From Jatrophihabitans sp. (GTDB lineage Bacteria > Actinomycetota > Actinomycetes > Mycobacteriales > Jatrophihabitantaceae), in contig DATFHF010000014.1 of the NCBI GenBank assembly GCA_035248685.1, forward strand, positions 133 to 64,132: a stretch of 64,000 nucleotides of DNA, in the 5' to 3' direction. How positions within the stretch are numbered: position 1 is the first letter of the stretch; every line of letters begins with the position of its first letter. The notes below the pieces were generated by a model. It was not told where the DNA came from, searched no databases, and was given only the letters and a program-made list of their open reading frames with translations. Made by a program: the position numbers and the translations under genes. Below, piece after piece: positions 2,754-21,130 of the stretch.

Positions 2754-2816
2754 CCGCTGGTAGCATTCGGCACGGCCTGCCGGCGGTTGTTTGGCCTCGG
2801 CGGCCGGGTCGTTACG

Positions 2817-2888
2817 GCCCCCGTAGCTCAGGGGATAGAGCGCTACCCTCCGGAGGTAGAAGCGCAGGTTCGAATCCTGCCGGGGGCA
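2817..2888 (+). tRNA. tRNA-Arg (anticodon CCG)
   Basis: Cloverleaf read by eye: acceptor GCCCCCG/CGGGGGC, D-arm GCTC..GAGC, anticodon stem CTACC/GGTAG with loop CTCCGGA (anticodon CCG), T-arm GCAGG-TTCGAAT-CCTGC, discriminator A. No CCA is encoded. Confidence 0.9.
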
Positions 2889-2941
2889 CAATTGTGTTGT
2901 CTCGGGACATCGTGCACACCTGTCTCGGGTCATCGTCGCGG

Positions 2942-4021
2942 TTAGCTCGACCACTTCTTCTTTAGCTTCTTCAGCTCGACGTCGCATGCTGCCGAGACCT
3001 CTGGTGGCACACGTATTTCAAAGGCTTCGCTGATGATGATGTGCTCGCCGGCTGCGATGCGTTGAGGCAGGTGGTCGAGCTGACGGACCAGGCGATCGAT
3101 CACCTGGCGGTATTTATCAACTGGGTCATCAACGAACCTTGCCAGGGCTTCGACTAGCGGTTGGGCGTCACCTGGCACGCTCGCTCCTCGCAGCCGAGCA
3201 GCCCAGTCCATCAGTTGGATGTATAGGCCGTTCCACCGGCGCGCCAAATGAGCCATCCGCTCGGCGGCTTCATCGCCGTCTGGCGCGTTGGTTGCCGCAT
3301 TCAGCACTTGCGGGTTCATAAAGTTGCTCACCGACTCCACCATCCGGGCGGCATCATCGGTCGCAACTTTGAAGAACTGCCAAAACGCAGAACGGTCAAC
3401 TACTTGGCCGGTGCGTTCAGCGTATCGGAACATGTGATCGCGATATTTAGGTTCGGCCAAGGCCAACTCCTGCAGCAGCTGAGCCGCGAGGTATAGGTAC
3501 TCCCAACCTGCCGGCTTCATGAGCAGCAACGCTTGGCGTCCGACCTCATCGCGTGGGACGCCGGTGATCTCATGCGCTATGGAGGAGGCAGCCCCGCTCA
3601 GCTTGGCACAGATTGAGGCCACGATGCCTTCGACGCCGACGCGCCTGGCATCGAGATAGCCCACGGTCGGCCGAAGGCCGTCGAGCGCTGTGTCGTCTAG
3701 TCGGACTGGCAATACGTACGGCTCTACCTGCTCAAGTCCGCGCGCGAGTGCACTGCGTCGTTCGTGACGCGGCCACATCTTGGCGGCGTAGTGGCGCGAG
3801 ATGAAGAGGATCGCGTAGCGGGATTTAAGCCGGTAAATCTGGTCGAAGTATTCGACCAGATCTTGCCCCCACAACTCCCAGTCGCGGTCCGCGTCATAGA
3901 ACACCCGATAGCCAGTGGGCTCCAGGCCCGCGACAACAGCTTCAACGAAGGCACGGTCCTCGCCGGCAAAGGACAGCGCTACATCGAACTCCGGCAAGGT
4001 CGGCTCTTGCACTAACGACAT
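2942..4021 (-). CDS. TIR-domain protein with uncharacterised ~220-aa helical C-terminal domain
   Basis: The N-terminal region FDVALSFAGEDRAFVEAVVAGLEPTGYRVFYDADRDWELWGQDLVEYFDQIYRLKSRYAILFISRHYAAKMWPRHERRSAL matches the bacterial TIR_2 pattern (DVFxSxAxED .. W-P-x-x-E). Start chosen at ATG 4021 (MSLVQEP), with GGGAAG upstream; the ORF extends to 4087. Confidence 0.8.
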   Translation of the reverse strand: MSLVQEPTLPEFDVALSFAGEDRAFVEAVVAGLEPTGYRVFYDADRDWELWGQDLVEYFDQIYRLKSRYAILFISRHYAAKMWPRHERRSALARGLEQVEPYVLPVRLDDTALDGLRPTVGYLDARRVGVEGIVASICAKLSGAASSIAHEITGVPRDEVGRQALLLMKPAGWEYLYLAAQLLQELALAEPKYRDHMFRYAERTGQVVDRSAFWQFFKVATDDAARMVESVSNFMNPQVLNAATNAPDGDEAAERMAHLARRWNGLYIQLMDWAARLRGASVPGDAQPLVEALARFVDDPVDKYRQVIDRLVRQLDHLPQRIAAGEHIIISEAFEIRVPPEVSAACDVELKKLKKKWSS

Positions 4022-4615
4022 ACGACCAGCTTCCCAGCTGAGGTGACCTTTGGCGTATCCCACGCCCGCTGCGGTCGGGAGGGTCACCCGGTGTGTGGAA
4101 TGCGGCCGCTTTTGGCTACGCCTGGTCTTCGAACTTCAGGAGCTTGGCAGGATTTCGCCTATTGCTCGTTCGCAAGCCGTTCGGTCGGGGACACACTGTC
4201 CACCCGAGCCTAGTTAGGCGAGCCTGGCTGGTGCCCGTTGCCTTCTCGACCGTTCGCTCGAATCCCTAGTAATTATCGAACAGCGTTCGAATAACAGATC
4301 CTGCTGCTGCCGCCGCCTACCACTTAGCTGGACGCATGCAAGGTTCTGGAGGCGGTGCTTATCCTGTTATGTGCGGTTCCCGGGTCAGCCCCGACTAGGC
4401 CGGAGAATGCCTTTGAGGCCTCCTAACATTGGGGCGGCTGCGTTCAGACCCGGAAGCCGACTATGCAGGGCCGGCTGGCATCGACAATGACCCGGCGCAT
4501 GAACACGTCGGGTGTTTGACACAGCTTGATACTTCCAGTCCTAACGATGCTATAAAGTTACCCACTTTTGATGTGAGTCTCTGTAGCGTGCGCGCACAAA
4601 AGCTGGGGGTGCGCC

Positions 4616-7411
4616 ATGAGAACTGCGCGACGTTCGCACAAACCCAAGCACTTCCGGGTACCGACACGGGGCCTGGCGATCCTGGTCGTTGGCGCGCTGG
4701 TCGCGGGGATGACCGGCGGAGCCGAGAGTGCGAGCGGCAGCATTTCGCAGGGTGCGCAGGCACCCTTGCCGACCTGGCGAAGCTTCTACGACTGGGCGCA
4801 TGGCAATGGCTATGTTGGCTGGCACACCGCTTCGTCTGACCCGACCGACTATGGGATCCGGAGCGCCTACGGTGGCCAGTACGGCCTGTGGCTGTGGGCG
4901 AAGGGCGGCCAGCACATCTACACCCAGACCGACGATGCAGAGTGGACCTACACCGCACCCGGCACCACCCGGCTGCTCAACACCACGCTCTCGTTCTCCT
5001 ACCGGAACAAGCTGCTAGCCCACCACTGCATCGAGGTGGGCTACCGAACGCTCGACGGCGTCAAGACCGCCGACGAAGACTTCTGCCAGCCGGCTCATCC
5101 GCCGGACTCCCAAGACCTGACGAATGTGCACCTCGCCGACCCGAACCCCGGGTCGCCGACGGCGAAGGTGCTGTTCCTGCGGATCCACGTCGACTGCGGC
5201 GGCGCGGCCACCTGCTCGAAGACCATTCCTACCCAGGATCCGCTGACTAACGGCAACTACGTCCGCTTCCTGAGCGTCGACTCGACATTGGTCGACGACG
5301 ATCTGCCGGTCGCGAATCCGTCCGGCCCGCTGTATGACCTGCACGACCACTTCATCGACGGCTCGCAGAGCTACGGCGTCACCCTGGACGCAACGGACGC
5401 TGGCTCCGGGATCGCAAGCTCATCGTTCACCCACGCCTCGACCTATCCGCCGCAAACCGATCCGACGGTGACGCAGAACGCGCCGTGCGACCCGACCCAC
5501 AACACGCCGGTTCTCGATGCGCGGATCTGCCCGCCGGAGTTCAGTTGGCAGACCACTGCGGATACCAGAGCCTTCCCGGAAGGGCCGACCACCTTCACCG
5601 AGAACGCCACCGACGTGGGGGGCAACGTCGGCTCCGCCTCCTGGACGATCTACATCGACCGCACACCGCCGGATTCGGTAGTGCCCAGCGGGTCGCTGTG
5701 GGACCTGGCCGGGCAGACCACCGCGGGCTCGACCGAGTTCGTGACCGTCGACGCGCACGATCCCGGCGCGGATGAGCAGAAGGCATCCGGCATAGCCAGT
5801 GTGTGGGTGGAGGAGGTCGGCGTCGGGCTGATCGACTCCTCGGACAACCCCGACTGCACCGACCTCAGCTGCCCGGACTCCTACTCGGCAACACTGCCGG
5901 TCGAACTGGGCGGTTTGAACGAGGGCGATCACACCTTTGTCGTAAAAGCGCAGGACTTCGTTGGGCATGTGACCGAAGGCCCAAGCTGGACGGTCACCAT
6001 CGCCCGCGATCCGAGTGATAACGAGTTAACCGACGACGAGCCGGACGTTGACACCGGCCCGGCCGGACCGGACGAGACACCCGACGGCGGCGCGGTTGGC
6101 TACGACCCTACGACGGACCCTGACCCGGCTTGCGATGCCTACGTCGACATCGGCATCAGCGACTGGTGCAGCAATCCGACCCTCCAGGCCATGAACAGCA
6201 TCAGCCTCGCTACCACCACGCAAGCGACGGCTAGCTACAGCGGCTGCGGCCTCAAGGCGGTCTTCTGGAGCATCGGCAAGCCACCGCAGTACCTCGCCGA
6301 AGCACTCGGGAGATACAACCTCGGCCCAGGTTGTGCCGATTACTACTTCGCGCAAACGCCGACCGGGACGGACGAGGAGCGCCAGTTGCCGGTTTGTCTA
6401 CAGGGCATCCGTAGTAGCTGGCCCGTGAACTTCCACTCCGCTCCAGTTTTCCAATGGACCTCATGGGCAACCTGGGTTCGGGAGAACTATCCCGGTAATC
6501 AGTTCCTCGGCTGGTACAGAGCCGGCCTCACCTTCCGGGACAGGATTGATTCGGGGAACAACTGCCGGCCCGGCGACAAGTGGTTCCTAAATGAGATGCC
6601 CTCCGATTGGCACACGAACGCGACTGAACGTGCGCGTATCCTCGATGCGCTCCGTGGCCTTTATCAAGGCTCCTCCGACCACCCCATCACTGGTTTCACC
6701 GCCGATCCAGTCGAGCCGCAGAACCAGAACAACGACAACGGCGCCCTGTCGACCTACAAGCAACGCCTACAGACCGTGTACGCCGAGTCAAACTTCTGGA
6801 AGACCCTCGGCAAATACGTCGACGGTTATGCAAAAGAGTCATACGACCGCTGTTTACAAGTGTGCGTCCCGGGCGACAGCAGATTGACGATTGCCAACCA
6901 GGGCGTCATCCCCTACACCTACCACCAGCGAATACTCGCGCAGGTCGCACCGACGACGACGAAATACGCAGCGGTGAAGGCCACGATGGGGCAGGACTAC
7001 ATGCCGCTGCTGAACGCCCTCTGGAATTCTCCGTTGGATGTCTATGACACCGGAAAGAGGCAGGGGCCTAATGGAGTCATCTACGGGCTCACCATCAGGC
7101 AGATGGCCGGGCTGATCCATGAGCAGATCTATGCCGCACGCCTGGCGGCCAACTCTAGCTGGGGATCGGCGGGGCGCATCGGCTTCGCCTGGCACGAGAC
7201 CTTCGGTCATGGGAACGACCTCGCCGAGGCGACGCAACTGGCCGATAACCTCGCGAGAGCCCTCTTCGACGCCTATTCGCCTTACGGCGGTCCGGGGTTC
7301 GCCTGCCTCGACTACGACGGCGCCGACCCGTATTACTACGGCTGTGCGACGGCAAGCAGAGTGAACGCAGCGTTCAACTCGACGTGGAACATCTTCAGCA
7401 GGTGGCCGTAA
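4616..7411 (+). CDS. large secreted protein of unknown function with Ig-like repeat modules
   Basis: 931-aa ORF with a signal-peptide-like N-terminus (RGLAILVVGALVAGMTGGAESASG). Two similar modules are present (TFTENATDVGGNVGSASWTIYIDRTPPDS and HTFVVKAQDFVGHVTEGPSWTVTIARDPSD). I do not recognise the ~430-aa C-terminal region. Confidence 0.7.
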   Translation: MRTARRSHKPKHFRVPTRGLAILVVGALVAGMTGGAESASGSISQGAQAPLPTWRSFYDWAHGNGYVGWHTASSDPTDYGIRSAYGGQYGLWLWAKGGQHIYTQTDDAEWTYTAPGTTRLLNTTLSFSYRNKLLAHHCIEVGYRTLDGVKTADEDFCQPAHPPDSQDLTNVHLADPNPGSPTAKVLFLRIHVDCGGAATCSKTIPTQDPLTNGNYVRFLSVDSTLVDDDLPVANPSGPLYDLHDHFIDGSQSYGVTLDATDAGSGIASSSFTHASTYPPQTDPTVTQNAPCDPTHNTPVLDARICPPEFSWQTTADTRAFPEGPTTFTENATDVGGNVGSASWTIYIDRTPPDSVVPSGSLWDLAGQTTAGSTEFVTVDAHDPGADEQKASGIASVWVEEVGVGLIDSSDNPDCTDLSCPDSYSATLPVELGGLNEGDHTFVVKAQDFVGHVTEGPSWTVTIARDPSDNELTDDEPDVDTGPAGPDETPDGGAVGYDPTTDPDPACDAYVDIGISDWCSNPTLQAMNSISLATTTQATASYSGCGLKAVFWSIGKPPQYLAEALGRYNLGPGCADYYFAQTPTGTDEERQLPVCLQGIRSSWPVNFHSAPVFQWTSWATWVRENYPGNQFLGWYRAGLTFRDRIDSGNNCRPGDKWFLNEMPSDWHTNATERARILDALRGLYQGSSDHPITGFTADPVEPQNQNNDNGALSTYKQRLQTVYAESNFWKTLGKYVDGYAKESYDRCLQVCVPGDSRLTIANQGVIPYTYHQRILAQVAPTTTKYAAVKATMGQDYMPLLNALWNSPLDVYDTGKRQGPNGVIYGLTIRQMAGLIHEQIYAARLAANSSWGSAGRIGFAWHETFGHGNDLAEATQLADNLARALFDAYSPYGGPGFACLDYDGADPYYYGCATASRVNAAFNSTWNIFSRWP

Positions 7412-7781
7412 CGAATGCGGAGCAGGCTTATCTCAATTCGACGCCGTCGCAACCCCAGCCGCGGCGACCCGGCACCATAGACCACATGATCCGCTCGGGA
7501 CGGATAGCGAAATATCTCGCAGTGCTCAGCCTGTTGCTGATCGCTGCCGGCATCGCGTACGGGATGGCGAGCACGACCCCACTACGACACCAACCTGTGC
7601 GGTAAGACCAGCAGCCATCCTCCCTTTGCCACTTTGCCGCACGATCCCTGCTCCGGCCTGGCAACCCATTGCGGACCGCCGTGGAGCTACTAATCGGCCC
7701 CGGCTTCCTAGGCCTGGTTATGCCGGCGCGCTGGCGCTCATGACCTCGTCGAATTTGGGGCTAGCTCGGCAAAACCGGTAG

Positions 7782-10472
7782 TCACCGCGTGGTGGTAGCG
7801 CTGGCCGCGGCGGTCCCGTACGACGATCCCGCGACGTAAAGCCGGTAGCTGTAGCTATGCGTCTGGACGAAGCCGACCGCCATTTGCCCGGTCGAGTCAC
7901 TGGTCCGAGACAGCACGTTTTGCCAGCTGCCGTTGATGAAACGCTGAAGGTATATGGTCCGGCCAGCGCTGCGGCTGATCGTAGAGCCGACCTGCTGTTT
8001 GATCAGCCCGTTGATGTAGACGGCGACGCCTTGGCGGGAGCTGGCAATGTACGCGGTGGTCAAGCCTAAGGACACCGTCATGGTGTTGCTGGGATACGAC
8101 GTGTGCCCGGTCGTGTCGAAGGCCACCACGAAGTACCGGTGGGTCGAGCCGACCTTCAGGCCGGTGTCGGTCCAGCTGCCCCCCATGAGTCCGCTCGCCA
8201 CCCGGACTCCGTCGCGGTAGACCGAATAGCTGCCGATAGCGACATTGTCGGTGGCGCCGTTCCAATACAGCGGCACTGTGCCCGGCACCCCGGCCGACAC
8301 GAACAGCCGCGGCGGGGTCGGCCGGGTCCAGTCCGGAGTAGTAACCGATGTGCCGGAACTGATCCGCGAGATATTGCCGGCCTCATCCACCGCCGCCACC
8401 GAGTAGGTGTACTTGGTAATGTCCTTGGCCGTGGTGTCGGTGGCGCTGTTACCGGTCAGCCCGGACAGCAACAGCATCCCATCTCGATAGACCTGGTAAC
8501 TGCTGACGCTGACGTTGTCGGTGGTAGCCCCCCAGGACAAGCTCACCTGGTGTGGGGTGGCCAATGAGATGTGCGCGAGCGGAGGACCCGGTGTGTTGGG
8601 CGGGGTCGTGTCCGGCACCGCTACGGACCCGGAGGCCGCACTCTGTGCCGAAGAGTTGTCGCGCTGGTCCCGCGCCGCCACGGTCCAGCTGTGGGTGCCC
8701 ATCGGCACCCCAACATCGGTCCAACTGGTGACGCCGGCCGGGATGGTGGCCCGGTAGACGCCGTCGCGGTAGATGTCGTAGGCAACCACGCCGACGTTAT
8801 CGGTGGCCGCAGCCCCGCGCTTGATGATGACGTTGCCGGCGCTCCGGACGGCCGACGGCGCACCGGGCACCGACGGCGCCGAGTTGTCGGCGGCGAAGTG
8901 ATAGGTCACCTGGTCGAACACGGCGCCGTTCGAATCGGTCGGGCTGACCGTGACGTTGGTGCCGGACACCGTCACCTTGAGGAAGTGATAGACCTGCCCG
9001 GCCGCGCTGGGCTTGGCGGTCGCAGAACCGCTCGGCGAACCGCAGGACAGGCCGGTGGCGTGGCCCGGATCCCAACCCCGAGCGTAGACATCGGTCGAAG
9101 AACAGGCGCTGGACGCCAGCAGGCTCGGCACCCCGCCACCGCCGCCGGTGACGTAGCTCGGCACCCCGCCGGGCGGCGCGACGTTGCGCTGATACAGGTG
9201 GGCGTGCCCGTTGAAGACCAGGTTCACTCCGTTGTTGTTGAGCAATGCCTCCAGGCTCGTCCCGCCGCCGGTCGGGTTGGCCGCGCTGTTCTGCAAATAA
9301 ACGTCCTGCTGGGTGGTGAAGTTGTTCTGATCGACTCGCAGCGGGTAGTGGAAGAAGGCCATCCGCAGCGCGTTCGCTCCACGCGCCGCCCGGTCCTGCT
9401 GAAGGTCGTTGGCCAACCACTGGTATTCCGCACTGTCCTGCTGCCAGTGCAGATCCCGGTCGGCCTGGTAGCTGGGGCAGTTCGACGGGCACGCGGTGCC
9501 CAGGTTCGGGTAGCTGGATTGCGACAGGTCGCTCCAGTCGGCGTCCAGGATGTAGAACCGCACCCCACCGACGGTGTAGGCGTACCAGTCGCTGGGATAG
9601 TTGCCGGCCGGCAGGCCGTTCACCGACGGATACGGTGTCGAGCCGCTGTACACACCGCCGGAAGCGGCGGCGTTGGCGGCAGTCGGCCAGGTCGAGAAGA
9701 ACACTCCATTGCGGCCGTGGTTACCGGCCACCGCGTACAACGGCAGGCTGGAACCGACCTTGCCCCAGTACCGGGCGTCGAAGACACCGCTGACCTCCGG
9801 ACCGCCACCGGCACCGTCAGCGGGATGGTTCAGGTCACCGTAATTGGTGGTACTGCCGCCGGGATACGCCACGTCCCCGGTCGAGACCGCGAACAGCGCC
9901 GGCGCGCTGGGGCTGGCCGCGCTGGATGCCAACTGGTCGTCCAAGGCGTCCTGGTACGGGTTATAACTGGTCTGCGGGCCGTTGTTGGACAGCAACGTCT
10001 CGCCGAAATCCCCCAGCACGTCGAAGCTGAACGAGCCGCTGCTCGGCAGGGTGCTGAACGTGGTCGGGAACCGCGGCGGTTCGGATAGCAGCGCGGTGTC
10101 CGGACTGCCCGTCCCGCTGAAGATCCGGTAGCAGTAGGTGGTCCCCGGAGAGAGGTTCTTCAGCACCACCGAATGCTGGTAGTACGGTGCGGCCTCGCCG
10201 AAGGCGGTGTAGCTGGTGGGCGCACCGGCTGCCGCCGCGATCGACTGGCCGCAATTCCCGGACGGCCCGTAGGACACCACACCGTCCGAGGTATCCGAGG
10301 CGTCGGTCGCCCAGACCACATCCACCGAGGTGGTGGTCAGGTCGGTCAGGTAGGGATACCGGGCGAGCGCCGGCGAGTCGGCGGCCGCGGTGGACGTGAT
10401 CGGCACCGCCATGCCCAGCAGGAGCAACGCGAACGCGACTGACGCCACCATCGGCCGATGGAAACGAACCAC
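7782..10472 (-). CDS. secreted metallophosphoesterase (purple-acid-phosphatase-like) with three FN3-like repeats
   Basis: Signal peptide, YPYLTDLTTTSVDVVWAT N-terminal domain, and calcineurin-type motifs GDFGE, GDVAYPGG, GNHG, NGHAHLYQR. Three tandem modules each contain ATDNVxVxxYxVYRDG. Confidence 0.8.
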   Translation of the reverse strand: MVRFHRPMVASVAFALLLLGMAVPITSTAAADSPALARYPYLTDLTTTSVDVVWATDASDTSDGVVSYGPSGNCGQSIAAAAGAPTSYTAFGEAAPYYQHSVVLKNLSPGTTYCYRIFSGTGSPDTALLSEPPRFPTTFSTLPSSGSFSFDVLGDFGETLLSNNGPQTSYNPYQDALDDQLASSAASPSAPALFAVSTGDVAYPGGSTTNYGDLNHPADGAGGGPEVSGVFDARYWGKVGSSLPLYAVAGNHGRNGVFFSTWPTAANAAASGGVYSGSTPYPSVNGLPAGNYPSDWYAYTVGGVRFYILDADWSDLSQSSYPNLGTACPSNCPSYQADRDLHWQQDSAEYQWLANDLQQDRAARGANALRMAFFHYPLRVDQNNFTTQQDVYLQNSAANPTGGGTSLEALLNNNGVNLVFNGHAHLYQRNVAPPGGVPSYVTGGGGGVPSLLASSACSSTDVYARGWDPGHATGLSCGSPSGSATAKPSAAGQVYHFLKVTVSGTNVTVSPTDSNGAVFDQVTYHFAADNSAPSVPGAPSAVRSAGNVIIKRGAAATDNVGVVAYDIYRDGVYRATIPAGVTSWTDVGVPMGTHSWTVAARDQRDNSSAQSAASGSVAVPDTTPPNTPGPPLAHISLATPHQVSLSWGATTDNVSVSSYQVYRDGMLLLSGLTGNSATDTTAKDITKYTYSVAAVDEAGNISRISSGTSVTTPDWTRPTPPRLFVSAGVPGTVPLYWNGATDNVAIGSYSVYRDGVRVASGLMGGSWTDTGLKVGSTHRYFVVAFDTTGHTSYPSNTMTVSLGLTTAYIASSRQGVAVYINGLIKQQVGSTISRSAGRTIYLQRFINGSWQNVLSRTSDSTGQMAVGFVQTHSYSYRLYVAGSSYGTAAASATTTR

Positions 10473-10492
10473 GAAACCCGCACCCCCGTGTA

Positions 10493-10513
10493 GCCGACGG
10501 CTTCACCGTCGGC
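10493..10513 (-). terminator. GC-rich hairpin downstream of the GH4/ABC operon
   Basis: Perfect 8-bp stem GCCGACGG/CCGTCGGC with a 5-nt loop, about 95 nt past the GH4 stop. A second 6-bp hairpin, CCGGAC-AGT-GTCCGG, lies at 10526-10540. No U-tract. Confidence 0.4.
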
Positions 10514-10607
10514 AGCTCCCCCAAACCGGACAGTGTCCGGCGAACACCCGCCGCCAGCTGGGACGGAGCGGATGTGTGTTCTGTATACAGGGGCCGAAAC
10601 GCAAGCG

Positions 10608-11882
10608 CTAGAAGCAGTCTTGCCAGAATCGGGGCAGCCGGTCGCGGTTCGCCTCCAGGATGGCGTCCAACAACGGCTTGGCCAGCTCCCACTGCCGCAC
10701 CAGCGGATTGGCGAGCAGTGCTCGCAGCGCCACCTGCCGGTTACCGGTCCGCGCCGCCTCGATCGTCAGGACCTCGTACGCGGTCACCGCCTGCACCAAG
10801 CCGAGCAGCTCCGGAGCCAGCGGCGGCACCGGCAACGGATGGGCCCCGGCAGCATCGACTAAAGCGGGCACCTCGACCACCGCGTCGTCCGGCAGCCCGG
10901 CGATGGTGCCGTTGTTGCGAACATCGACGTAGTGGTGGCCACCGTCCCCGGTCAGCAGCGACGTGACCAGCGCGGCAGCGGCCTCGCTGTAGTAGGCACC
11001 GCCCCGCTGCTCGAGCAGTTCCGGCTTGTGATCGAGCGCCGGGTCGGCATACATGTCGAGCAGCACGCGTTCGATCGCCAGCACCTCCTCGGCGCGTTGC
11101 GGGCCGGTTGCCTGGGCGTGAATCGCCCGGTCGGTGCAATAGAAGTAGTGCAGGTAGTAGGACGGGATGGCCCGCAAGGTGCGCAGCAGCTCGGCCGGCA
11201 GCTCGATTCCCTCGACTAGTTCGTCGATCCGGTCGCTGTCGAGCAGCTCGGGCAACCGGTCCACCCCGTCCACCAGGATCTGCCGGATCCAGGACAGGTG
11301 GTTGAGCCCGGCGTGATCCAGCCGAACCCGATCCGGGTGCACCCCGAACCGGCTGGCCAGCCGCCGCTGGAAGCCGATCGCGACATTGCACAGGCCGAGG
11401 GCGCGATGGCCCTCCTCCAGCAGGGCGCGAGTAACAATGCCGACCGGGTTGGTGAAGTCCACGATCCAGGCCTGCGGTAGCGCCCGCTCGGCGACCACCT
11501 CGGCGATGTCGAGCACCACCGGGACGGTCCGCAGCGCCTTGGCGAAACCACCCGGCCCGGTGGTCTCCTGCCCGAGCAGGCCGAACTTGCCCGGCAGGGT
11601 TTCATCGACCAGCCGTGCCTGTTGGCCGCCGACCCGCAGCTGGACCAGCACTGCCGCGGCACCGTCGACCGCCCCGGCCAGTGCGGTGGTGGTGGTCAGC
11701 CGGCCGGGGTAACCGTGGCGGTCCAGGATCCGCCGAGCCAGGCCGCCCACCACGTCGAGCCGATCGGCCGCGATGTCGTGCAGCACCAGTTCATCGACGG
11801 CCAGCGTGTCGGCTCGCCGCGCGAAACCCTCGATTAACTCGGGGGTGTACGTGCTACCCCCACCGATCACCGCAATCTTCAC
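10608..11882 (-). CDS. glycoside hydrolase family 4 (6-phospho-beta-glucosidase-like)
   Basis: MKIAVIGGGSTYTPELIEGF N-terminal NAD-binding motif, ..GLCNVAIG.. and overall GH4 length (424 aa). Confidence 0.85.
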   Translation of the reverse strand: MKIAVIGGGSTYTPELIEGFARRADTLAVDELVLHDIAADRLDVVGGLARRILDRHGYPGRLTTTTALAGAVDGAAAVLVQLRVGGQQARLVDETLPGKFGLLGQETTGPGGFAKALRTVPVVLDIAEVVAERALPQAWIVDFTNPVGIVTRALLEEGHRALGLCNVAIGFQRRLASRFGVHPDRVRLDHAGLNHLSWIRQILVDGVDRLPELLDSDRIDELVEGIELPAELLRTLRAIPSYYLHYFYCTDRAIHAQATGPQRAEEVLAIERVLLDMYADPALDHKPELLEQRGGAYYSEAAAALVTSLLTGDGGHHYVDVRNNGTIAGLPDDAVVEVPALVDAAGAHPLPVPPLAPELLGLVQAVTAYEVLTIEAARTGNRQVALRALLANPLVRQWELAKPLLDAILEANRDRLPRFWQDCF

Positions 11883-11884
11883 AG

Positions 11885-12880
11885 CTATCCCGTTCTATAG
11901 GCTAGTTCAGCCTCGGCGACGTGACAGGCCGCCTGATGGGCCGGAGCCAGCAGCCGGGGTTGCGGGGTGAGCTCGGCACAGACGTCCACCGCCAGCGGGC
12001 AGCGCCAGCGGAACCGGCAGCCAGGGCTCGGGTCGATCACTCGGGGTGGCTCGCCGGTGTCCGAGTCGGCGGCCACCTCCAGCGGCGCCCGCGGATCCGG
12101 GACCGCCGACAACAACAGCTGGGTGTACGGGTGTTTCGGCTCCGCCAACACGCTTTCGGTCGGGCCCGATTCGACGATGTGTCCGGCGTACATCACGAGC
12201 AGCCGGTCGGACAGGTACCGCGCGCTGGCGATGTCGTGGGTGATGTAGAGGATGGAGACGCCCTCGTCCTCGCGCAGCTTTGCCATCAGGTTCAACAACC
12301 CGAGCCGGATCGAGACGTCGAGCATCGATACCGGCTCGTCGGCCAGGATCAGCTTCGGCTGGTAGGCCAATGCCTGGGCGAAGCCGATCCGCTGGCGCTG
12401 GCCGCCGCTCAACTCGTGCGGGAACCGGTCGAGGATGGTGGCCGCCGGGGTCAGTCCAACCGCATCCACCACCCGTTCGGCCTCGGCCAGGCGCTGCGCC
12501 CGGCTTAGCTCGGGCCGGTGCAGTTTCAGCCCGCGCCGGATGCCGTGCGAAACCCGATAGGCCGGGTTCAACGAACTGAACGGGTCCTGGAACACCATCG
12601 GGACATCGCTTCGATACGCCATTGCCTGCCGGCGGGTACGCATGCTGGCCAGCGATCTGCCCTGGTAGCGAATCTCGCCGCTGGTCGGGCGGTACACCCG
12701 GGCAAGCAACCGGGCGATGGTGCTCTTGCCGCTGCCGCTCTCCCCCACCAACGCGACGATTTCCTTGTGATGGATGACTAGATTCGCATCGTCGACCGCG
12801 TGCAGGGTTCGCCGGCTCAAGCTGCCGCCGACCTTGAAGTGCTTGCTCAGCCCGCGGGCCTCCAGCAACGGCTCGGTCAT
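11885..12880 (-). CDS. ABC transporter ATP-binding protein (DppF/OppF-type)
   Basis: Walker A GESGSGKST, signature LSGGQRQR, Walker B ILADEPVSMLD. Start at ATG 12880 (MTEPLLEARGL) overlaps the upstream stop as ATGA. Confidence 0.9.
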   Translation of the reverse strand: MTEPLLEARGLSKHFKVGGSLSRRTLHAVDDANLVIHHKEIVALVGESGSGKSTIARLLARVYRPTSGEIRYQGRSLASMRTRRQAMAYRSDVPMVFQDPFSSLNPAYRVSHGIRRGLKLHRPELSRAQRLAEAERVVDAVGLTPAATILDRFPHELSGGQRQRIGFAQALAYQPKLILADEPVSMLDVSIRLGLLNLMAKLREDEGVSILYITHDIASARYLSDRLLVMYAGHIVESGPTESVLAEPKHPYTQLLLSAVPDPRAPLEVAADSDTGEPPRVIDPSPGCRFRWRCPLAVDVCAELTPQPRLLAPAHQAACHVAEAELAYRTG

Positions 12881-13869
12881 GAGGACTCCCGCCCCTCGGA
12901 CGGCACCGAGGGTGCGTGCCGCAGGCAGCGAGCCTGCGCCGGCCCAACGTCGTACAACCGCGGTTCGACGCTGCTGCACTGCGGTTGCACGACTGGGCAC
13001 CGTGGATGGAACCGGCAGCCACTCGGCAGCCGGGCCAGCTCCGGTGGGCTGCCGGGAATGCCGGCGAGCTCGACTCGCGGACCCCTGATGGACGGGAAGG
13101 CCTCAAGCAGCCCCCGGCTGTACGGATGCGCAGGCGTGTCGAACACGGTCCGGGTCGGCCCGGCCTCCACTACCTGACCGGCGTACATGACCAGCAACCG
13201 GTCGGAGAAGTGGCTGACCAGCGACATGTCATGGGTCACGAAGACCACCGCGAAACCCAACCGCTGCTGAAGTTGCTTGATCTGGACCATCAGCGAGCGT
13301 TGCGCCACCACGTCCAGCGCCGAGGTGGGTTCGTCCATGATTATCAGGTCGGGCGTGAACAGCAGCGCCATCGCGATCATGGCTCGCTGCCGCATGCCGC
13401 CACTGAGCTGATGCGGGTAGCTACCGAGATGGATCGGGTCGATACCGACCAGCCGCAGCACTTGCGTGGACCGTTCGGTCGCCTGCTGCGCGGAAAACTT
13501 GCTGTGTGCCGCCAGCGCGTCGCGAAACTGCGCGCCGATGCTCAGCACCGGGTTGAGCGCGTTCATGGCGCTTTGCATGACCAGCGACAACTCCCGCCAC
13601 CGCAGCACGTTCAATTGCTTGTCGGTCATGGTGACCAGGTTCCGCGCATTGAACGCCACGCTGCCGGCGGTGATCGCGGCCGGTGGGCTGAGCAACCGGG
13701 CGATCGCGAACAGCATGGTGGACTTGCCACAGCCGGACTCGCCCACCACCCCGACGAATTCGCCCGTCCCTACCTCGAAGCCGACACCGTCGACGGCGGT
13801 CACCGGGCCGCGATCGGTGGCGTATTCGACCGTCAGCTCTCGAACCTCAAGCACCGGCGCGGTCGGCAC
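12877..13869 (-). CDS. ABC transporter ATP-binding protein (DppD/OppD-type)
   Basis: GESGCGKST, LSGGMRQR, IIMDEPTSALD, and a C-terminal oligopeptide-type extension with CRFHPRC. Confidence 0.9.
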   Translation of the reverse strand: MPTAPVLEVRELTVEYATDRGPVTAVDGVGFEVGTGEFVGVVGESGCGKSTMLFAIARLLSPPAAITAGSVAFNARNLVTMTDKQLNVLRWRELSLVMQSAMNALNPVLSIGAQFRDALAAHSKFSAQQATERSTQVLRLVGIDPIHLGSYPHQLSGGMRQRAMIAMALLFTPDLIIMDEPTSALDVVAQRSLMVQIKQLQQRLGFAVVFVTHDMSLVSHFSDRLLVMYAGQVVEAGPTRTVFDTPAHPYSRGLLEAFPSIRGPRVELAGIPGSPPELARLPSGCRFHPRCPVVQPQCSSVEPRLYDVGPAQARCLRHAPSVPSEGRESS

Positions 13870-14779
13870 GTCGCCTCCTCACCGGCCGGAGCGCCGGGTT
13901 GCTGATCTCATCGAACGCGTAGTTGATCAGGGCGAACGAGACGCCGAGCAGGGCCACGCACAGCCCCGGAGCAATCGACCAGAGTGGCATGCCGGTCTGG
14001 AGGGCCTGCTGGCTCTGTGACCAATACAGCATGGTGCCCCAGCTGATCGAGTTCGGATCCCCCAGGCCGAGGAACTGCAAACCGGCCGCGGTCAGCACCG
14101 AATACAGGGCCGCCCCGAGAAAGTTCGCGACGATCAGCGAGGTCATGGTAGGCAGCACCTCGGCCAGGATGATGTATGAGCGCCGCTCGCCACGTACTCT
14201 CGCGGATTCAAGAAAGTCCCGGTTGCGCAACGACAACGTCTGCGCGCGCAGCTGATTGGCCCCGTAGGACCAGCCGGTGACGACCAGCACTACCAGGATC
14301 ACCAGCAGGGTGCCCTTGCCGGCGTAGGTGGCGAAGATAATGATCAGCGGAAAGGTCGGTATCACCAGGAAGATGCCGGTGATCATCGACAGCACCTCAT
14401 CGGCGATGCCACCGAGGTAGCCGGCGCTCACCCCCACCAGCACCGACAGCACAGTGGCAAACAGCCCGGCCACCAGGGCGATGACCAGTGACTGCCGGGT
14501 GCCGTAGACCAGTTGGGCCCAGATGTCCTGTCCCAATGACGTGGTGCCCAGCCAGTGCCTGCTCGACGGCCCTAGCGATGGTGCGAAGGCCAGGTCGTTG
14601 GGATGGCGAACCGAGGTGAACAGCCCCGGTGCCACCGCCAGCACGCAGAAGACGACGAAGATGATCGTCCCGATCATGGCCTTGCGGCTGCTGCGAACCG
14701 CACCGATCCAGCCACCGCCGTGCCGGCGAACCGGCGGGCTGGTGCCGGCAGCGGCGGTGTCGATCAACAGCGCGGTCAT
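13847..14779 (-). CDS. ABC transporter permease (DppC-type)
   Basis: Multi-TM protein of the binding-protein-dependent permease type, positioned within the operon. Confidence 0.85.
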   Translation of the reverse strand: MTALLIDTAAAGTSPPVRRHGGGWIGAVRSSRKAMIGTIIFVVFCVLAVAPGLFTSVRHPNDLAFAPSLGPSSRHWLGTTSLGQDIWAQLVYGTRQSLVIALVAGLFATVLSVLVGVSAGYLGGIADEVLSMITGIFLVIPTFPLIIIFATYAGKGTLLVILVVLVVTGWSYGANQLRAQTLSLRNRDFLESARVRGERRSYIILAEVLPTMTSLIVANFLGAALYSVLTAAGLQFLGLGDPNSISWGTMLYWSQSQQALQTGMPLWSIAPGLCVALLGVSFALINYAFDEISNPALRPVRRRRADRAGA

Positions 14780-14785
14780 CGCGGG

Positions 14786-15775
14786 TCAGCCGTTCGTCCG
14801 GGATCGCGGGTCCAGCCAGGCGATCGCGAAGTCGCAGATCAGCAATGCGAGCAGCACCGCGACCGTGAACAGCATGAACAATGCCTGCATCAGCGGGTAA
14901 TCGCTGTTCTGCACGGCGTTGTACAGCAGGTAACCCAGCCCCGGGTAGTTGAAGACGTACTCCACCAGGATCGCGCCGGAGATGACGAAACCGAGCGACA
15001 TGGCAAAGCCGGACAGGTTCGGCAAGAATGCATTGCGCGCCGCGTAGCTGGTCATGATCCGCCGGTTCGATAGGCCCTTGGCGCGTCCCATCCGGACGTA
15101 GTCCTCCGACAGGGTGGTGATCATATTGTTGCGCATGGTCAGGATCCAGCCGCCGATCGAGGTGATCAGGATCGTCGCCGCCGGTAATACCGCGTGTTTC
15201 AGCACGTTCTCGATGAAACCCAGCGACCACTCGGGCAGCAGGTCGGTGTCGTAGTTGAAGTCGCTGGGCAACAGGCCGTTGGTCCAGACCGAGAAGACCA
15301 GGATCAGCAGCAGGCCCACCCAGAAGTAGGGCAGCGCGGAGGTCACCACGAATACCGGCGGCAGCACCGAGTCCAGCTTGCCGCCGCGTTTCCAACCGGC
15401 CACGATGCCGATCACCGAGCCGAGCGCGAACGCGAGCACGGTGGCCATCCCGACCAACCCGAGCGTCCACGGCAGCGCCTGCTTGACGATCGTGCTGACC
15501 GGCTCGCCCATGGTCGCGCCGATGGAGATTCCCCAGTCACCGGTGACCATGCTCTTCAAGTAGTCCAGGTACTGCACTGCGATGTTCTGGTGCGGCTTGA
15601 ATCCGAACGAGGTGAGCAGTTGCTCCAGCGCCGCCGGTGACAGCTTGTTGTGCGTCCGGTCCCGCAGCGCCTGAAGCGGGCTGCCCGGCATGAACCGCGG
15701 AATGAAGAAGTTCAAGGTCAGCGCAGCCCACAGCGTGAGCAGGAAGAAGCCGAGCCGGCGCAGCACGTACCTCAT
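14786..15775 (-). CDS. ABC transporter permease (DppB-type)
   Basis: MRYVLRRLGFFLLTLWAALTLNFFIPRFMPGSP is a typical DppB/OppB N-terminus, followed by the EAA-type loop RAKGLSNRRIMTSYAARNA. Confidence 0.9.
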   Translation of the reverse strand: MRYVLRRLGFFLLTLWAALTLNFFIPRFMPGSPLQALRDRTHNKLSPAALEQLLTSFGFKPHQNIAVQYLDYLKSMVTGDWGISIGATMGEPVSTIVKQALPWTLGLVGMATVLAFALGSVIGIVAGWKRGGKLDSVLPPVFVVTSALPYFWVGLLLILVFSVWTNGLLPSDFNYDTDLLPEWSLGFIENVLKHAVLPAATILITSIGGWILTMRNNMITTLSEDYVRMGRAKGLSNRRIMTSYAARNAFLPNLSGFAMSLGFVISGAILVEYVFNYPGLGYLLYNAVQNSDYPLMQALFMLFTVAVLLALLICDFAIAWLDPRSRTNG

Positions 15776-15784
15776 TGCCGGAGG

Positions 15785-17533
15785 CTACTGCGCGGCGCGT
15801 GAGTACAGGTGTAACAGCACCTGCTCGACGTCGGGAACGGTGAACGCCGAAGGCTGGGCGTACGGGTCGTCCGCGGTCGGCCAGCCGCCGATGTCGCTGG
15901 TGTTGTACTGGAACCAGTCGACGGACTCGGTGGTCGGAATGATCGGGATGTCCTTGAGCACGGCGTCTTCGACCTGCTTCATGATCGCCACCTGGCCGGC
16001 GTCGTCGGCGCTGGGGTAGGAGTTGAGCAACTCGTCGATCGCCGGGTTGTTGTACCGCTCGTAGTTGCTGTTGGCCTGCTGGCCCAGTGGTGCCGAGTTC
16101 TTCGAGTGCAGCATCTGCCGCAGCTCGTAGTACGGCGTGGGCCCACCCGGTTCCCCGTAGTAGGCAAGGTCGAAGTCACCGGTGAAGAGCTTGGAGTCGA
16201 ATGTCTGCTGGGCCAGGTCCTGCACGGTCAGCTCGATGCCGATCGGCTTGAGCTGCTGCTTGATGACAGCCAGCGACGCGTCCCAGTCGGTGTAACCGGT
16301 GATTGTGATGATGGACAGCTTCAACGGGTGGGACGGTGAGTAGCCGGCGGAGGCGAGCAGCTGCCGAGCCTTGTCCGGGTTGGGCTTGTCGTAGCCGGCC
16401 GCGCTAACCGCCGCCGCGTCGTAGTACTTCGCGAACGTCGGAATGACTACCCCGGCCTGGTTGGCCGGCGGCTGCTGGCCACCCTCCCCGATCGCCGAGA
16501 TTTGGTTGCGGTCGATGGCGGCGGCGATCGCCTGCCGCACCGCGAGCTTGCTGGTGGCCTGGTGGGACGGATCCAGGTTCGGGAAGATGTTCACCAGGGT
16601 CACCGGCGGCGACCAGGTGTGGTTGTCGCTCGACTTGGATAGGTAGAACTGCTTGATGTTCGGGATGAACTGGCTTCCCCACTGAGCCTTGCCGTTGGCC
16701 AGATCAAGGTTTGCCGGCCCGTTGTCGAGGTAAGCCGGGTACTCCACCTTCTGGATGTAGGGCTTGCCGGGCTGCCAGTAGGTCGGGTTGGCCACGTATT
16801 GGATGTTGTTCGGCTTGCACGGGCTCACCTTGAACGGGCCGGTACCGACCGGATCCGGATCCGCCCAGGTGTCCGGGTGCGCCGCCGCCTCACCGGTTGA
16901 GAACACGTGCTCGGGCACGATGCCGACCTGGTTGGCGAAGTTGAAGAAGTACGGCTCGGCCGGCTTGTCGAACGTCATGGTGACTTGGTTGCCGCTGGCG
17001 GTCACGCTCTGCAGGCCGGCCGCGGTCCACAGCGCGTACGCATCGGTGGCCGGCACCCGCTTCATCAGGTTGAAGGTGAACGCGACGTCGTCGGCGCTGA
17101 ACGGCTGGCCGTCGTTCCACTTCACCCCGTCCCGAATGGTGAAGACGATGGACTTCTTATCCGCATCCCAGGTATAGGACTTCGCCAGCATCGGCGTCTC
17201 CGCCTGGTTGTTCAACAGGTTGACGAACACCAGCGGCTCGTATACGAAGCCGACCGACTCCAGGTAAACAGCCGGGTTGAACGGATTGAACTGACAGGTC
17301 CAGGTCTGCCCCTGCTCGTTGGAGATGGTGACCGTCCCGCCCTGCTTATGGGACGCCTTCTCGGTGCTGCTGCCCTCCTGACTCACGGTCCCCGAGGGTG
17401 TCGCGGCCACCCGCTTCTTCGCACTGGTACAGCCGGTGGCGAGCAAAGCCACTGTCACGCCAAGCACGAATGCCCTGGTTGCTGTGTTGCGCCTCATCTT
17501 GACGCTCCTCGGTAGGTGGTGTGTGCGGCTCAT
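15785..17533 (-). CDS. ABC transporter substrate-binding lipoprotein (family 5, peptide/oligosaccharide type)
   Basis: Lipobox LLATGC after a signal sequence; 582 aa, typical for SBP_bac_5. The start overlaps the upstream ROK stop (ATGA). Confidence 0.85.
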   Translation of the reverse strand: MSRTHHLPRSVKMRRNTATRAFVLGVTVALLATGCTSAKKRVAATPSGTVSQEGSSTEKASHKQGGTVTISNEQGQTWTCQFNPFNPAVYLESVGFVYEPLVFVNLLNNQAETPMLAKSYTWDADKKSIVFTIRDGVKWNDGQPFSADDVAFTFNLMKRVPATDAYALWTAAGLQSVTASGNQVTMTFDKPAEPYFFNFANQVGIVPEHVFSTGEAAAHPDTWADPDPVGTGPFKVSPCKPNNIQYVANPTYWQPGKPYIQKVEYPAYLDNGPANLDLANGKAQWGSQFIPNIKQFYLSKSSDNHTWSPPVTLVNIFPNLDPSHQATSKLAVRQAIAAAIDRNQISAIGEGGQQPPANQAGVVIPTFAKYYDAAAVSAAGYDKPNPDKARQLLASAGYSPSHPLKLSIITITGYTDWDASLAVIKQQLKPIGIELTVQDLAQQTFDSKLFTGDFDLAYYGEPGGPTPYYELRQMLHSKNSAPLGQQANSNYERYNNPAIDELLNSYPSADDAGQVAIMKQVEDAVLKDIPIIPTTESVDWFQYNTSDIGGWPTADDPYAQPSAFTVPDVEQVLLHLYSRAAQ

Positions 17534-18456
17534 GCCGGTGCCGCTGCTTGCAGGACTTCACGGGCGGCCGCGGTGCTCATCGCCAAGGCGCCCATCAATG
17601 GCGCGTCGAACGGGAAGGCCGCGAGCACCAGCTCAGGTGGGTAGGGCACTGCCGTGTCGAGCGCGCCGCGCAGGCCGGGGCGCAGTTGCTCCCAAGAGCG
17701 CGTCATGCCGCCACCGACCACGATGCGGGCCGGGTCGATGGCGATGGTCAGGTTCACCAGGTGAAAGGACAGTTCGGCGACGAAGTCGGTCAGCACGCCG
17801 GCCGCCGCCGGCTCGGCGTGGGCCCGCCGGAACACCGCTTCGGCACCGAGGCCGGGCGGCCGCAGCAGCCAGGCGGCCTGGCTCAGCGCCTGGCCGCTCA
17901 CCGCCTCCTCCAGCGGTGCACGCTTCGAGTTCGTCCCGATGTCGCCGACCCGGCGCAGGTTGTATCCGATCTCACCGGCAGCGCCGTGGTACCCGTGGAC
18001 CACCAGCCCGTTGACGACGATCGCCACCGCGAGCCCGGTGCCCAGGTTGAGGTAGATACCGGGGTCGCAGCCCACCAGGGCGCCCCACTCCGCCTCCGCG
18101 TGGGCCGCCGCCTTGACGTCGGTGGCCAGTCGGATCTCGGCACCGGCGAAAGCGCGCCTGAGTTCGCGGCCGAACGCGACGTCGCCCCAGCCGGGTATGG
18201 TGGGCGCCAGCCGCACCCCGTCCTCGCCCGGAATGCCGAACGTGCAGGCACCGACCGCGAGCAGCTGCCGGCCGCCGGCCACCTCGTCCAACAGTGCCTG
18301 TCCGGCAGCGATGCCGCGTTCGAGGGCGGCCTGCGCACCGTCCTCGGCCCCGCTCGGAATGGTCACCGAACCGAGCCGGTCACCGGAGATTTCGCTTACC
18401 GCGGCGGCAATCTTCGTCCCGCCGAAGTCCAGGCCGAGCACGACCGGTGCGTTCAC
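17530..18456 (-). CDS. ROK-family sugar kinase
   Basis: VVLGLDFGGTKIAAAV ATP-binding N-terminus and GAAGEIGY motif, with no N-terminal HTH. It is the first gene of the ABC/GH4 operon. Confidence 0.85.
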   Translation of the reverse strand: MNAPVVLGLDFGGTKIAAAVSEISGDRLGSVTIPSGAEDGAQAALERGIAAGQALLDEVAGGRQLLAVGACTFGIPGEDGVRLAPTIPGWGDVAFGRELRRAFAGAEIRLATDVKAAAHAEAEWGALVGCDPGIYLNLGTGLAVAIVVNGLVVHGYHGAAGEIGYNLRRVGDIGTNSKRAPLEEAVSGQALSQAAWLLRPPGLGAEAVFRRAHAEPAAAGVLTDFVAELSFHLVNLTIAIDPARIVVGGGMTRSWEQLRPGLRGALDTAVPYPPELVLAAFPFDAPLMGALAMSTAAAREVLQAAAPA

Positions 18457-18535
18457 GCCGGGCCCCCTCGCCTATGGACGGACTGGTAGTTAGTAAAGTA
18501 GACTGACAATTAATCCAGCACAAGACCCCGGCCAC

Positions 18536-18551
18536 ATTGGTTCAGACCACC
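18536..18551. promoter_or_regulatory. dre-like (DasR-type) operator candidate
   Basis: ATTGGTTCAGACCACC matches the remembered Streptomyces dre consensus ACTGGTCTAGACCACT at 12/16 positions. It lies in the divergent promoter region between the ROK kinase and the ROK regulator. Confidence 0.4.
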
Positions 18552-18566
18552 ACTTCGGGAGGATGC

Positions 18567-20764: not shown

Positions 20765-20769
20765 CCGGC

Positions 20770-21090
20770 TCAGCCCTCGGCGGCCTGCGGGTCGAACATG
20801 CGCAGCCGGTTGCGGGCCGCGAGGTAGCGCAGATCGCGAACCTCATCGGCGTCGGGCGCCGTCACGAACACCACGGCGAGGTAGCGATCGGCCGGCTGCC
20901 CGGAGCCGGGCCGGGGCAGCAGCCGCATCGCCGTCCAATCCGGATCACTGGCCAGCAGATCGCGACGGAACTCGGCAACGTCCGGGCAGGCCGCGGCACA
21001 GTTCCACTGCCCGTGCCGCAACCGGTCGGCCACCTCGGCATCTTCGAATCCGCCGTCGGTGGCTCCCCAGAACAGCAGCCAGTACTCCAC
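20770..21090 (-). CDS. hypothetical protein
   Basis: This is the C-terminal third of the 20770..21450 ORF (VEYWLLFWGATDGGFEDAEV..). The upstream part is antisense to the rhodanese gene. The start (GTG 21090 or TTG 21098) is uncertain. Confidence 0.45.
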   Translation of the reverse strand: MEYWLLFWGATDGGFEDAEVADRLRHGQWNCAAACPDVAEFRRDLLASDPDWTAMRLLPRPGSGQPADRYLAVVFVTAPDADEVRDLRYLAARNRLRMFDPQAAEG

Positions 21091-21130
21091 CGGCCCAAGG
21101 GTAGGACCGTCCGGTAGGTAACCTCGGGGT

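Follow-up and report, generated by a model that had tools for sequence, protein, structure and literature searches.

Immunity conferred by a single TIR-domain protein is already known in bacteria. SpbK (YddK), encoded on ICEBs1 of Bacillus subtilis, is a single-protein TIR NADase that acts through abortive infection; its helical domain docks on the dodecameric phage portal YonE, and this results in the clustering of the TIR domains (PMC12847820). It is the only stand-alone TIR protein with a worked-out mechanism that was found in the literature searched. In CapRel, a C-terminal domain auto-inhibits the toxin until a capsid protein is bound, and this one domain is both antitoxin and phage sensor (PMC9712102). 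The newest survey of bacterial TIR immunity explicitly excluded TIRs in stand-alone proteins (10.64898/2025.12.03.692087). The protein described here is of that stand-alone kind. It is encoded beside a tRNA-Arg(CCG) gene in a 64,000-nucleotide (nt) stretch of DNA from Jatrophihabitans sp. (assembly GCA_035248685.1, contig DATFHF010000014.1, positions 133 to 64,132), referred to as the window. The gene occupies 2942..4021 on the minus strand, with an ATG at 4021 and the stop codon at 2942-2944. Its product of 359 amino acids (aa) consists of a TIR domain followed by a helical C-terminal domain (CTD). Both the TIR+CTD combination and the CTD itself are undescribed: they are absent from Pfam, NCBIfam, PADLOC and the PDB, and nothing on either was found in the literature searched.

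With moderate confidence, the TIR-CTD protein is regarded as a conflict-system protein that was acquired horizontally and would work on its own, and the most likely role is that of a one-protein defence candidate of the abortive-infection type. This reading draws on the predicted catalytic TIR domain, the lack of a conserved partner gene, the mobility of the homologs, the behaviour of the CTD as a shuffled module, the signs of selection on the gene and the precedents of SpbK and CapRel.

The TIR domain

The TIR domain spans residues ~11-147 (3581..3991, minus strand), as placed by Pfam TIR_2, PDB profile matches and Foldseek. The TIR_2 match (PF13676) has an E-value of 7.6e-16 and scores 59.1 bits against a gathering cut-off of 28, and it was recovered again in the whole-genome scan. 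Across 59 homologs, W83 and E87 of SRHYAAKMWPRHER (WPRHE) are invariant. In the alignment, E87 falls on the glutamate of the W-x-x-x-E helix in BtpA (KQWPARE) and AbTir (KNWTEYE), and E87 of W83-P-R-H-E87 (codon 3761..3763, minus strand) is the predicted catalytic glutamate. A profile of the 59 homologs matched BtpA/TcpB, AbTir, PdTIR and plant TIRs in the PDB, with all matches confined to the TIR part.

The AlphaFold2 (AF2) model has a mean pLDDT of 89.5. Its best Foldseek match is AbTir (7uxu), with a target TM-score of 0.80 and a root mean square deviation of 2.8, followed by BtpA (4lzp, 0.65) and the TIRs of SPARTA and SARM1. The flavodoxin-like TIR fold of the model superposes on solved TIR NADases. 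Modelling and alignment together show a domain with the predicted fold and the conserved catalytic-type glutamate of NAD+-cleaving TIRs. The first-pass annotation of the window, which had matched the N-terminal part to the TIR_2 pattern, the WPRHE motif included, is borne out on this point.

The same TIR module (46-52% identity over residues 11-141) was also seen with other C-terminal regions at seven loci (L105-L110 and L115). The hosts are an archaeon, Bacteroidota, Acidobacteriota, Ignavibacteriae, Caulobacteraceae and one viral contig, and the modules adjoin AAA ATPases, DUF4062-like genes and DNA methyltransferases. The TIR half has therefore been shuffled independently too. The genome of the window itself carries two further TIR_2 genes, at C31:37990-38349 (L200) and C82:50062-50439 (L004:1012-2046). 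One of these lies in a 1,045-aa frame and is probably TIR-STAND/NLR-like; the other encodes a 344-aa protein that does not have the usual first strand motif.

The C-terminal domain

The CTD comprises residues 148-359 (2945..3580, minus strand), as delimited by the AF2 model and profile searches. Modelled alone, from 40 sequences translated from homolog loci, it is all-helical with nine helices, at a pLDDT of 95.2 and a pTM of 0.88. No Pfam family was detected in any of the 40 members, and no PDB match was obtained by sequence profile. Foldseek searches of the PDB returned generic helical bundles only, the best of which were talin rod bundles (E = 0.3, TM 0.35-0.44), and searches of BFVD gave nothing beyond generic helical bundles. 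The inability of the first-pass annotation to recognise this helical region is thus shared by the databases.

A profile of the CTD retrieved 1,966 cluster representatives (clusters at 50% identity) at E <= 0.001 among 1.84 billion proteins. The top 144 matches comprise 62 TIR+CTD proteins of all forms, 45 in which the CTD stands alone and 37 non-TIR fusions. Fusion partners verified with Pfam are Fic, protein kinase, a C-terminal HNH, DUF4236 with membrane segments, and a second, AbTir-like TIR clade. At L181:2260-3736, L195:4982-6618 and L178:4983-6633, a PIN_4 gene overlaps a downstream stand-alone CTD gene, and these two-gene operons are a split version of the effector+CTD architecture. Another recurrent, well-conserved N-terminal module of ~170 aa precedes the CTD (MNLxAQIELITVPQEF...DDDRxDRGNDGYLKSEKRLFAAHCFKR), and was found at L158, L168, L184, L186, L190, L192, L194 and L197 and in P0153 and P0221. 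By eye, this DRGNDGY...HCFKR module has the look of an Mrr/PD-(D/E)xK nuclease and an 'RTDLVGST' module that of a cyclase, with neither likeness supported by Pfam or the PDB.

On a CTD tree of 135 tips, the architecture labels require 50 changes as against 60.5 when they are shuffled, which is almost random. The well-supported branches alone force at least 14 TIR switches, and the nearest relative of the window CTD is a Fic-fused CTD. At the level of sequence, the CTD is shown to be a separate, mobile module whose partners have changed many times. Every partner that was identified is a toxin-type or effector-type domain, and this is the pattern expected if the CTD controls or senses and the TIR domain is the effector.

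The best-conserved CTD positions in all architectures are P156, P170, W173, E174, D195, A243, R262, Y267, R278 and R305, together with a loop. This loop, A-F-G-x-P-G-x-x-G-D-P, is the most conserved in the domain, and its glycines are 95-99% conserved; the genes of L005 and L007 are among the homologs that retain it. In the window it is degenerate (A-T-N-A-P-D-G-D-E-A-A, residues 243-253; 3263..3295, minus strand) and deviates from the consensus of 135 CTDs at positions 244, 245, 248, 251 and 252. It also varies within the window subclade, with TNAPDGDEAAE in the window, INEPNGDEVAG in L112 and VNARDDEQVVG in L120. From the alignment, the conserved contact of the AFGxPGxxGD loop is predicted to be remodelled or lost in the window lineage. 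Among these three sequences, the ratio of non-synonymous to synonymous substitution (dN/dS) is 0.09-0.12 in both domains, at a synonymous divergence (dS) of 0.7-1.1, and the gene has therefore been maintained under purifying selection. The novel sensor domain that the first-pass annotation proposed gains support from the exchange of TIR, Fic, kinase, HNH and PIN partners, with the correction that the most conserved loop is lost in the window subclade.

Distribution and mobility of the homologs

A word-indexed protein search yielded 274 homologous proteins, mostly of 355-366 aa and aligned over their full length, and the species-representative genome collection holds 479 relatives. The hosts are mostly Actinomycetota, among them Amycolatopsis, Glycomyces, Microbacterium, Curtobacterium, Leifsonia, Nocardioides and Lentzea, with a few Chloroflexota, Planctomycetota and Dormibacterota metagenome-assembled genomes. 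The CTD was found in two of 401 evenly sampled genomes of the phylum. Within the genus, the TIR-CTD gene is present in none of the 26 other genomes (0/26). The comparison across relatives at the tRNA-Arg locus, which the first-pass annotation had put forward as a check, identifies it as an accessory gene.

Neighbouring genes were clustered over 40 non-Lentzea loci; Lentzea was left out since its synteny dominated the first pass. No conserved partner gene was found across these loci, and the only recurrent neighbours were a tyrosine integrase (9 loci) and a serine recombinase (4 loci). The contexts of three to four sampled homologs are wholly different from one another. Of 39 loci, 11 have a tRNA or tmRNA gene no more than ~2 kb away, the tRNAs concerned being of different species. 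At 7 loci, the TIR-CTD gene is flanked by a tRNA and a 24-30 nt direct repeat of the 3′ end of that tRNA. Five of these (L009, L037, L051, L052 and L061) are elements of 6-11 kb with integrases. The remaining two hold the TIR-CTD gene alone, at L039:7312-9345 (2.0 kb, tRNA-Pro) and L103:215-1918 (1.6 kb, tRNA-Gly), each with a 30-nt repeat of the tRNA 3′ end and no integrase. To our knowledge, few insertions at tRNA sites are as small as these att-flanked islets of 1.6-2.0 kb. Either they are mobilised in trans, or they are what is left of elements that have been stripped down, and they raise the question of how the gene moves without an integrase of its own.

The closest homolog, L112, has 86% aa identity to the window protein and lies beside an RHS array. 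The two loci have in common only the gene and 58 bp upstream of it, and the similarity ends at the stop codon. The RHS neighbour suggested a secreted polymorphic toxin, a reading that was rejected: the protein is short and has its TIR domain at the N-terminus, no domain for secretion or delivery was detected, and the RHS neighbourhood does not recur at other loci.

Two further homolog loci are of note. In Microbacterium stercoris (L054:8001-15351), a 6.1 kb island is flanked by tRNA-Gly, and the end of the TIR-CTD gene is 47 nt from the repeat of this island, on the outside; a second, weaker TIR-like frame (10090-10521) lies inside the island, and the arrangement may reflect tandem insertions. 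A TIR_2-nSTAND1-AAA_16 gene is located ~7 kb downstream of homolog P0022 (L008:8229-9457 / L035), and that locus therefore holds two TIR systems.

The locus beside tRNA-Arg(CCG)

The tRNA-Arg(CCG) gene lies at 2817..2889 on the plus strand, as identified by ARAGORN, Rfam (tRNA, 70.4 bits) and a junction alignment with six genomes of the genus. The TIR-CTD gene is convergent with it, and its stop codon starts 53 nt past the tRNA end, an arrangement that agrees with the first-pass description. The sole long open reading frame beside the tRNA is 2942..4087 (minus strand), which gives 381 aa when read from a GTG. Translation most likely starts instead at the ATG at 4021, for a product of 359 aa, because the homologs uniformly begin at that position (MSLVQEP) and the DNA similarity to L112, which spans 4079..2943, ends at 4079.

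The next gene is divergent (4616-7411) and encodes a secreted protein of 931 aa that has no Pfam domain; it too is present in none of the 26 other genomes of the genus. The non-coding gap between the two genes, earlier put at about 530 bp and described as richer in A and T, measures 528 bp from the GTG and 594 bp from the ATG. The fraction of G and C (GC) is 0.57-0.64 over 2851-4650 as against 0.65-0.73 on the left flank, and the lower-GC non-coding DNA upstream of the TIR-CTD gene occupies 4022..4615. This intergenic DNA is single-copy in the genome, and only its first 58 bp are common to the L112 locus. A stretch of 83 nt within it (4112-4194) matches L112:5652-5737 at 78% identity and has no further copy in the genome of the window. 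The matching site is intergenic and belongs to the RHS region of the L112 contig. A search of 2700-4700 for RNA elements, promoters and terminators found the tRNA only, the promoter scan being poorly suited to high-GC actinobacteria.

Between the tRNA and the TIR-CTD stop codon lie two tandem 16-nt copies, TGTCTCGGGACATCGT and TGTCTCGGGTCATCGT (2898..2936). Both carry a small TGTC/GACA hairpin (TGTC....GACA), and the repeat sequence was not seen after the tRNA in the relatives of the junction alignment. These repeats are possibly a terminator or a remnant recombinase site. The tRNA end in the window (2886-2892) reads ...GCACAA after the acceptor stem, while ...GCACCA is encoded in five of the six relatives, and an integration event may have exchanged the tRNA 3′ end.

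The left flank, consisting of DUF3105, DUF305 and the tRNA, is present in all 26 other genomes of the genus. When seven genomes are aligned, homology stops exactly at the tRNA 3′ end, and the DNA of each species differs from the next base onwards. Synteny with the relatives breaks at ~2890 and resumes at window positions ~20,780-21,150. This late resumption means that the TIR-CTD gene opens an ~18 kb species-specific segment at a tRNA-Arg(CCG) hot-spot (2891..20780, delimited by synteny and Pfam content). Besides two large proteins that are secreted, the rest of the segment encodes a GH4 glycosidase, an ABC importer of the Opp/Dpp type, and ROK and BadF-type kinases; the GH4, ABC transporter and ROK genes form a sugar cluster. 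The segment is a flexible hot-spot or mosaic and not a defence island.

In one relative (G001), the same tRNA carries an insert of ~6.9 kb (L029:1479-8355) that ends with a 49-nt copy of the tRNA 3′ half. Its genes specify a winged-helix protein and an ABC ATPase of the Ppl/AriA/mad3-like kind, the latter divided between two frames (414 + 594 aa), and the insert is a defence-type island at the same hot-spot. Other relatives have sugar-metabolism or other genes at this site.

The suggestion that the locus is the remnant of an island is strengthened by the 7 homolog loci that are flanked by a tRNA and a repeat, and it has to be amended in that the variable DNA is an ~18 kb mosaic of metabolic and secreted genes rather than this gene only.

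Proposed mechanism and competing explanations

In the proposed mechanism, the TIR domain would be an NAD+-consuming effector and the CTD its controller. In the resting cell the TIR domain would be inactive. When the CTD meets its trigger, the TIR domains would self-associate and hydrolyse NAD+, and the infected cell would stop. What the CTD responds to may be a protein of the phage itself or an alteration that the phage brings about in some component of the host. By analogy, activation could proceed through clustering on an oligomeric phage protein, in the manner of SpbK, or through relief of auto-inhibition, in the manner of CapRel. The gene probably arrived as cargo of a tRNA-targeting integrative element that has since lost its integrase and distal repeat.

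A broader and more tentative proposal is that the CTD could be a widespread (~2,000 clusters) and universal control or sensor module, which can switch on many toxic enzymes that have no kinship with one another: two TIR clades, Fic, HNH, PIN, protein kinase, membrane segments and the DRGNDGY...HCFKR module. On this view, the CTD proteins would be a modular and hitherto undefined family of immune sensors, made of one protein (or two genes), that all answer to one conserved trigger. This trigger would bind at the near-invariant W-E, D, R, R and AFGxPGxxGD residues, and the window subclade would be a variant in which the site is remodelled.

Several observations weigh against a defence function in the window. 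Apart from the TIR-CTD gene, the segment encodes metabolic or secreted proteins and has no defence gene. The segment carries no mobility genes: a Pfam scan found no integrase or recombinase domain within 2.9-21 kb. No second copy of the tRNA 3′ end was found in the window, in searches from 14-nt exact matches up to 30 nt with 4 mismatches. Of the features of a tRNA-integrated island, the start at the tRNA 3′ end is thus seen in the window, and the integrase and distal direct repeat are missing, in agreement with the first-pass annotation, which had found no integrase and no convincing att repeat. The PADLOC (PDC-S66, ThsB) and NCBIfam (retron-TIR) matches are limited to the TIR part, and no validated defence family was matched beyond it. 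The window subclade has replaced five of the most conserved CTD residues, in the AFGxPGxxGD loop, and the sensing function of the CTD may be altered or lost there. The full-length protein was not found on viral contigs in a scan that used TIR-derived patterns only and was blind to CTD-only genes, and a scan with a tighter CTD alignment did not find the CTD on viral contigs either. Finally, a shorter TIR-CTD subfamily (314 aa) is syntenic in ~35 Lentzea species, which is unusual for a defence gene.

In Lentzea, the gene stands between ispF and a HAD hydrolase in a core carD-ispD-ispF-[TIR-CTD]-HAD-cysS-rlmB cluster, as in Lentzea sp. E54 (L065:5940-11962). This placement looks like fixation. 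The subfamily retains the W-x-x-x-E and CTD motifs and diverges ~4x faster than its flanks, with a median identity of 77.5% vs 93-99%; its evolution is therefore not housekeeping-like.

The alternative that survives best, although it is rather unlikely, is that of a fused toxin-antitoxin or addiction module, which would mainly stabilise its mobile elements, or answer stress, and would not sense phages. The CTD would here be an antitoxin-like inhibitor of a TIR, Fic, HNH or PIN toxin. Where a PIN gene and a CTD gene overlap in their frames, the pair has the look of a type II toxin-antitoxin operon, the partner domains of the CTD are all classic toxin domains, and the family travels on integrative elements. 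However, the islets of L039 and L103 hold the gene alone between att-like repeats and offer nothing to stabilise, and the gene persists in Lentzea and in the window without a mobile element. Many toxin-antitoxin modules are themselves defence systems, CapRel being an example (PMC9712102), and this alternative therefore overlaps with the favoured reading of a one-protein defence candidate.

Alternatively, the family might serve a cellular function outside immunity, for instance in NAD-linked regulation or in the developmental cell death of actinobacteria, with the CTD binding a conserved host ligand. The genus-wide retention of the gene in Lentzea, at the same place inside a housekeeping cluster, favours such a role. 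The strongly conserved polar and glycine residues of the CTD (W173, E174, D195, R262, R278 and AFGxPGxxGD) are also what a conserved ligand would lead one to expect, and none of these proteins was seen on phages in the viral-contig scans. Outside Lentzea, however, the gene is extremely sporadic (0/26 in the genus, 2/401 in the phylum), it is cargo of integrase elements and its partners are toxin-type domains. Nor is the gene slow to change in Lentzea, where its evolution is ~4x faster than that of its flanks. A non-immune role is judged unlikely.

It has also to be considered that the TIR domain might be a Thoeris-like producer of a signal (an isomer of cyclic ADP-ribose (cADPR) or similar), with the effector encoded elsewhere in the genome or being a conserved host protein. 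A weak PADLOC match to ThsB (E = 9.6e-4) points this way, and the closest solved TIRs, AbTir and BtpA, presumably belong to the group described as makers of cADPR isomers, to judge from PDB entry names. Such a role is nevertheless improbable. No effector gene is adjacent in the window or conserved beside the homologs, and no SIR2_2 domain was found anywhere in the genome; the first-pass annotation had similarly noted that no ThsA-, SIR2-, STING- or CBASS-type partner is nearby, and none was found in the window or as a conserved neighbour at the 40 loci. The TIR domain sits in the same slot beside the CTD as Fic, HNH, PIN and kinase domains, which argues for a role as effector. Furthermore, horizontal transfer of the single gene would part the producer from its receptor.

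That the gene is the functionless, decaying remnant of an old island is highly improbable: the window has no integrase or att repeat, the conserved CTD loop is degenerate in its subclade and no promoter-like site was found by a scan poorly suited to high-GC actinobacteria, but the reading frame is unbroken, none of the invariant TIR residues has been lost and dN/dS is 0.095-0.109 in both domains, at dS 0.7-1.0, against two subclade relatives.

Comparison with described systems

Thoeris resembles the window locus in having a TIR-domain protein in variable or defence-type contexts. It differs in that the ThsB TIR gene stands in an operon with an effector (ThsA SIR2-SLOG, Macro, TM and others), whereas no effector gene adjoins the gene in the window. 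PDC-S66, a single-gene TIR candidate, is the best PADLOC match (E = 2.2e-13). This match covers only model positions 145-240 of 282 and residues 30-128 of the 381-aa form, and does not extend over the whole model. The architectures differ, and it is the C-terminal half of PDC-S66 that matches the N-terminal half of the window protein, and the CTD is left uncovered.

AbTir (7uxu), BtpA (TcpB, 4lzp) and PdTIR (3h16) are the best matches in both sequence and structure, over residues ~11-147. In common with the window protein, they have a strand-loop of the pattern FxxxSxAxED, a BB-loop region reading G-[DE]-x-L and the W-x-x-x-E helix. Identity is 24-28%, and these proteins have N-terminal coiled-coil or other regions, none of them with the CTD.

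CapRel has an N-terminal toxin domain and a C-terminal regulatory domain in one polypeptide, a layout that the window protein would share if, by analogy, its CTD is regulatory. The split versions of the family, with a PIN gene and a CTD gene, fit the logic of CapRel. The toxin of CapRel is a RelA/SpoT-type tRNA pyrophosphokinase, in contrast to the TIR domain of the window protein, and there is no kinship in sequence or fold.

SpbK differs from the window protein in domain order, with an N-terminal sensor and a C-terminal TIR domain where the window protein has the reverse. The window CTD is ~210 aa long and has no detectable similarity to anything solved, and no SpbK chain is among the PDB profile matches at E <= 1. 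The likeness to SpbK lies in the arrangement: one gene that has no conserved partner and is found on mobile DNA or an integrative element, and a TIR domain joined to a helical non-TIR domain, which in SpbK is small. The CTD would thus represent a second control domain for stand-alone TIRs, unrelated to that of SpbK and joined repeatedly to at least six kinds of toxic enzyme. As it is joined to so many toxic enzymes, identification of its trigger could explain ~2,000 protein clusters at once, and the trigger, once identified, would give a portable switch for effector domains.

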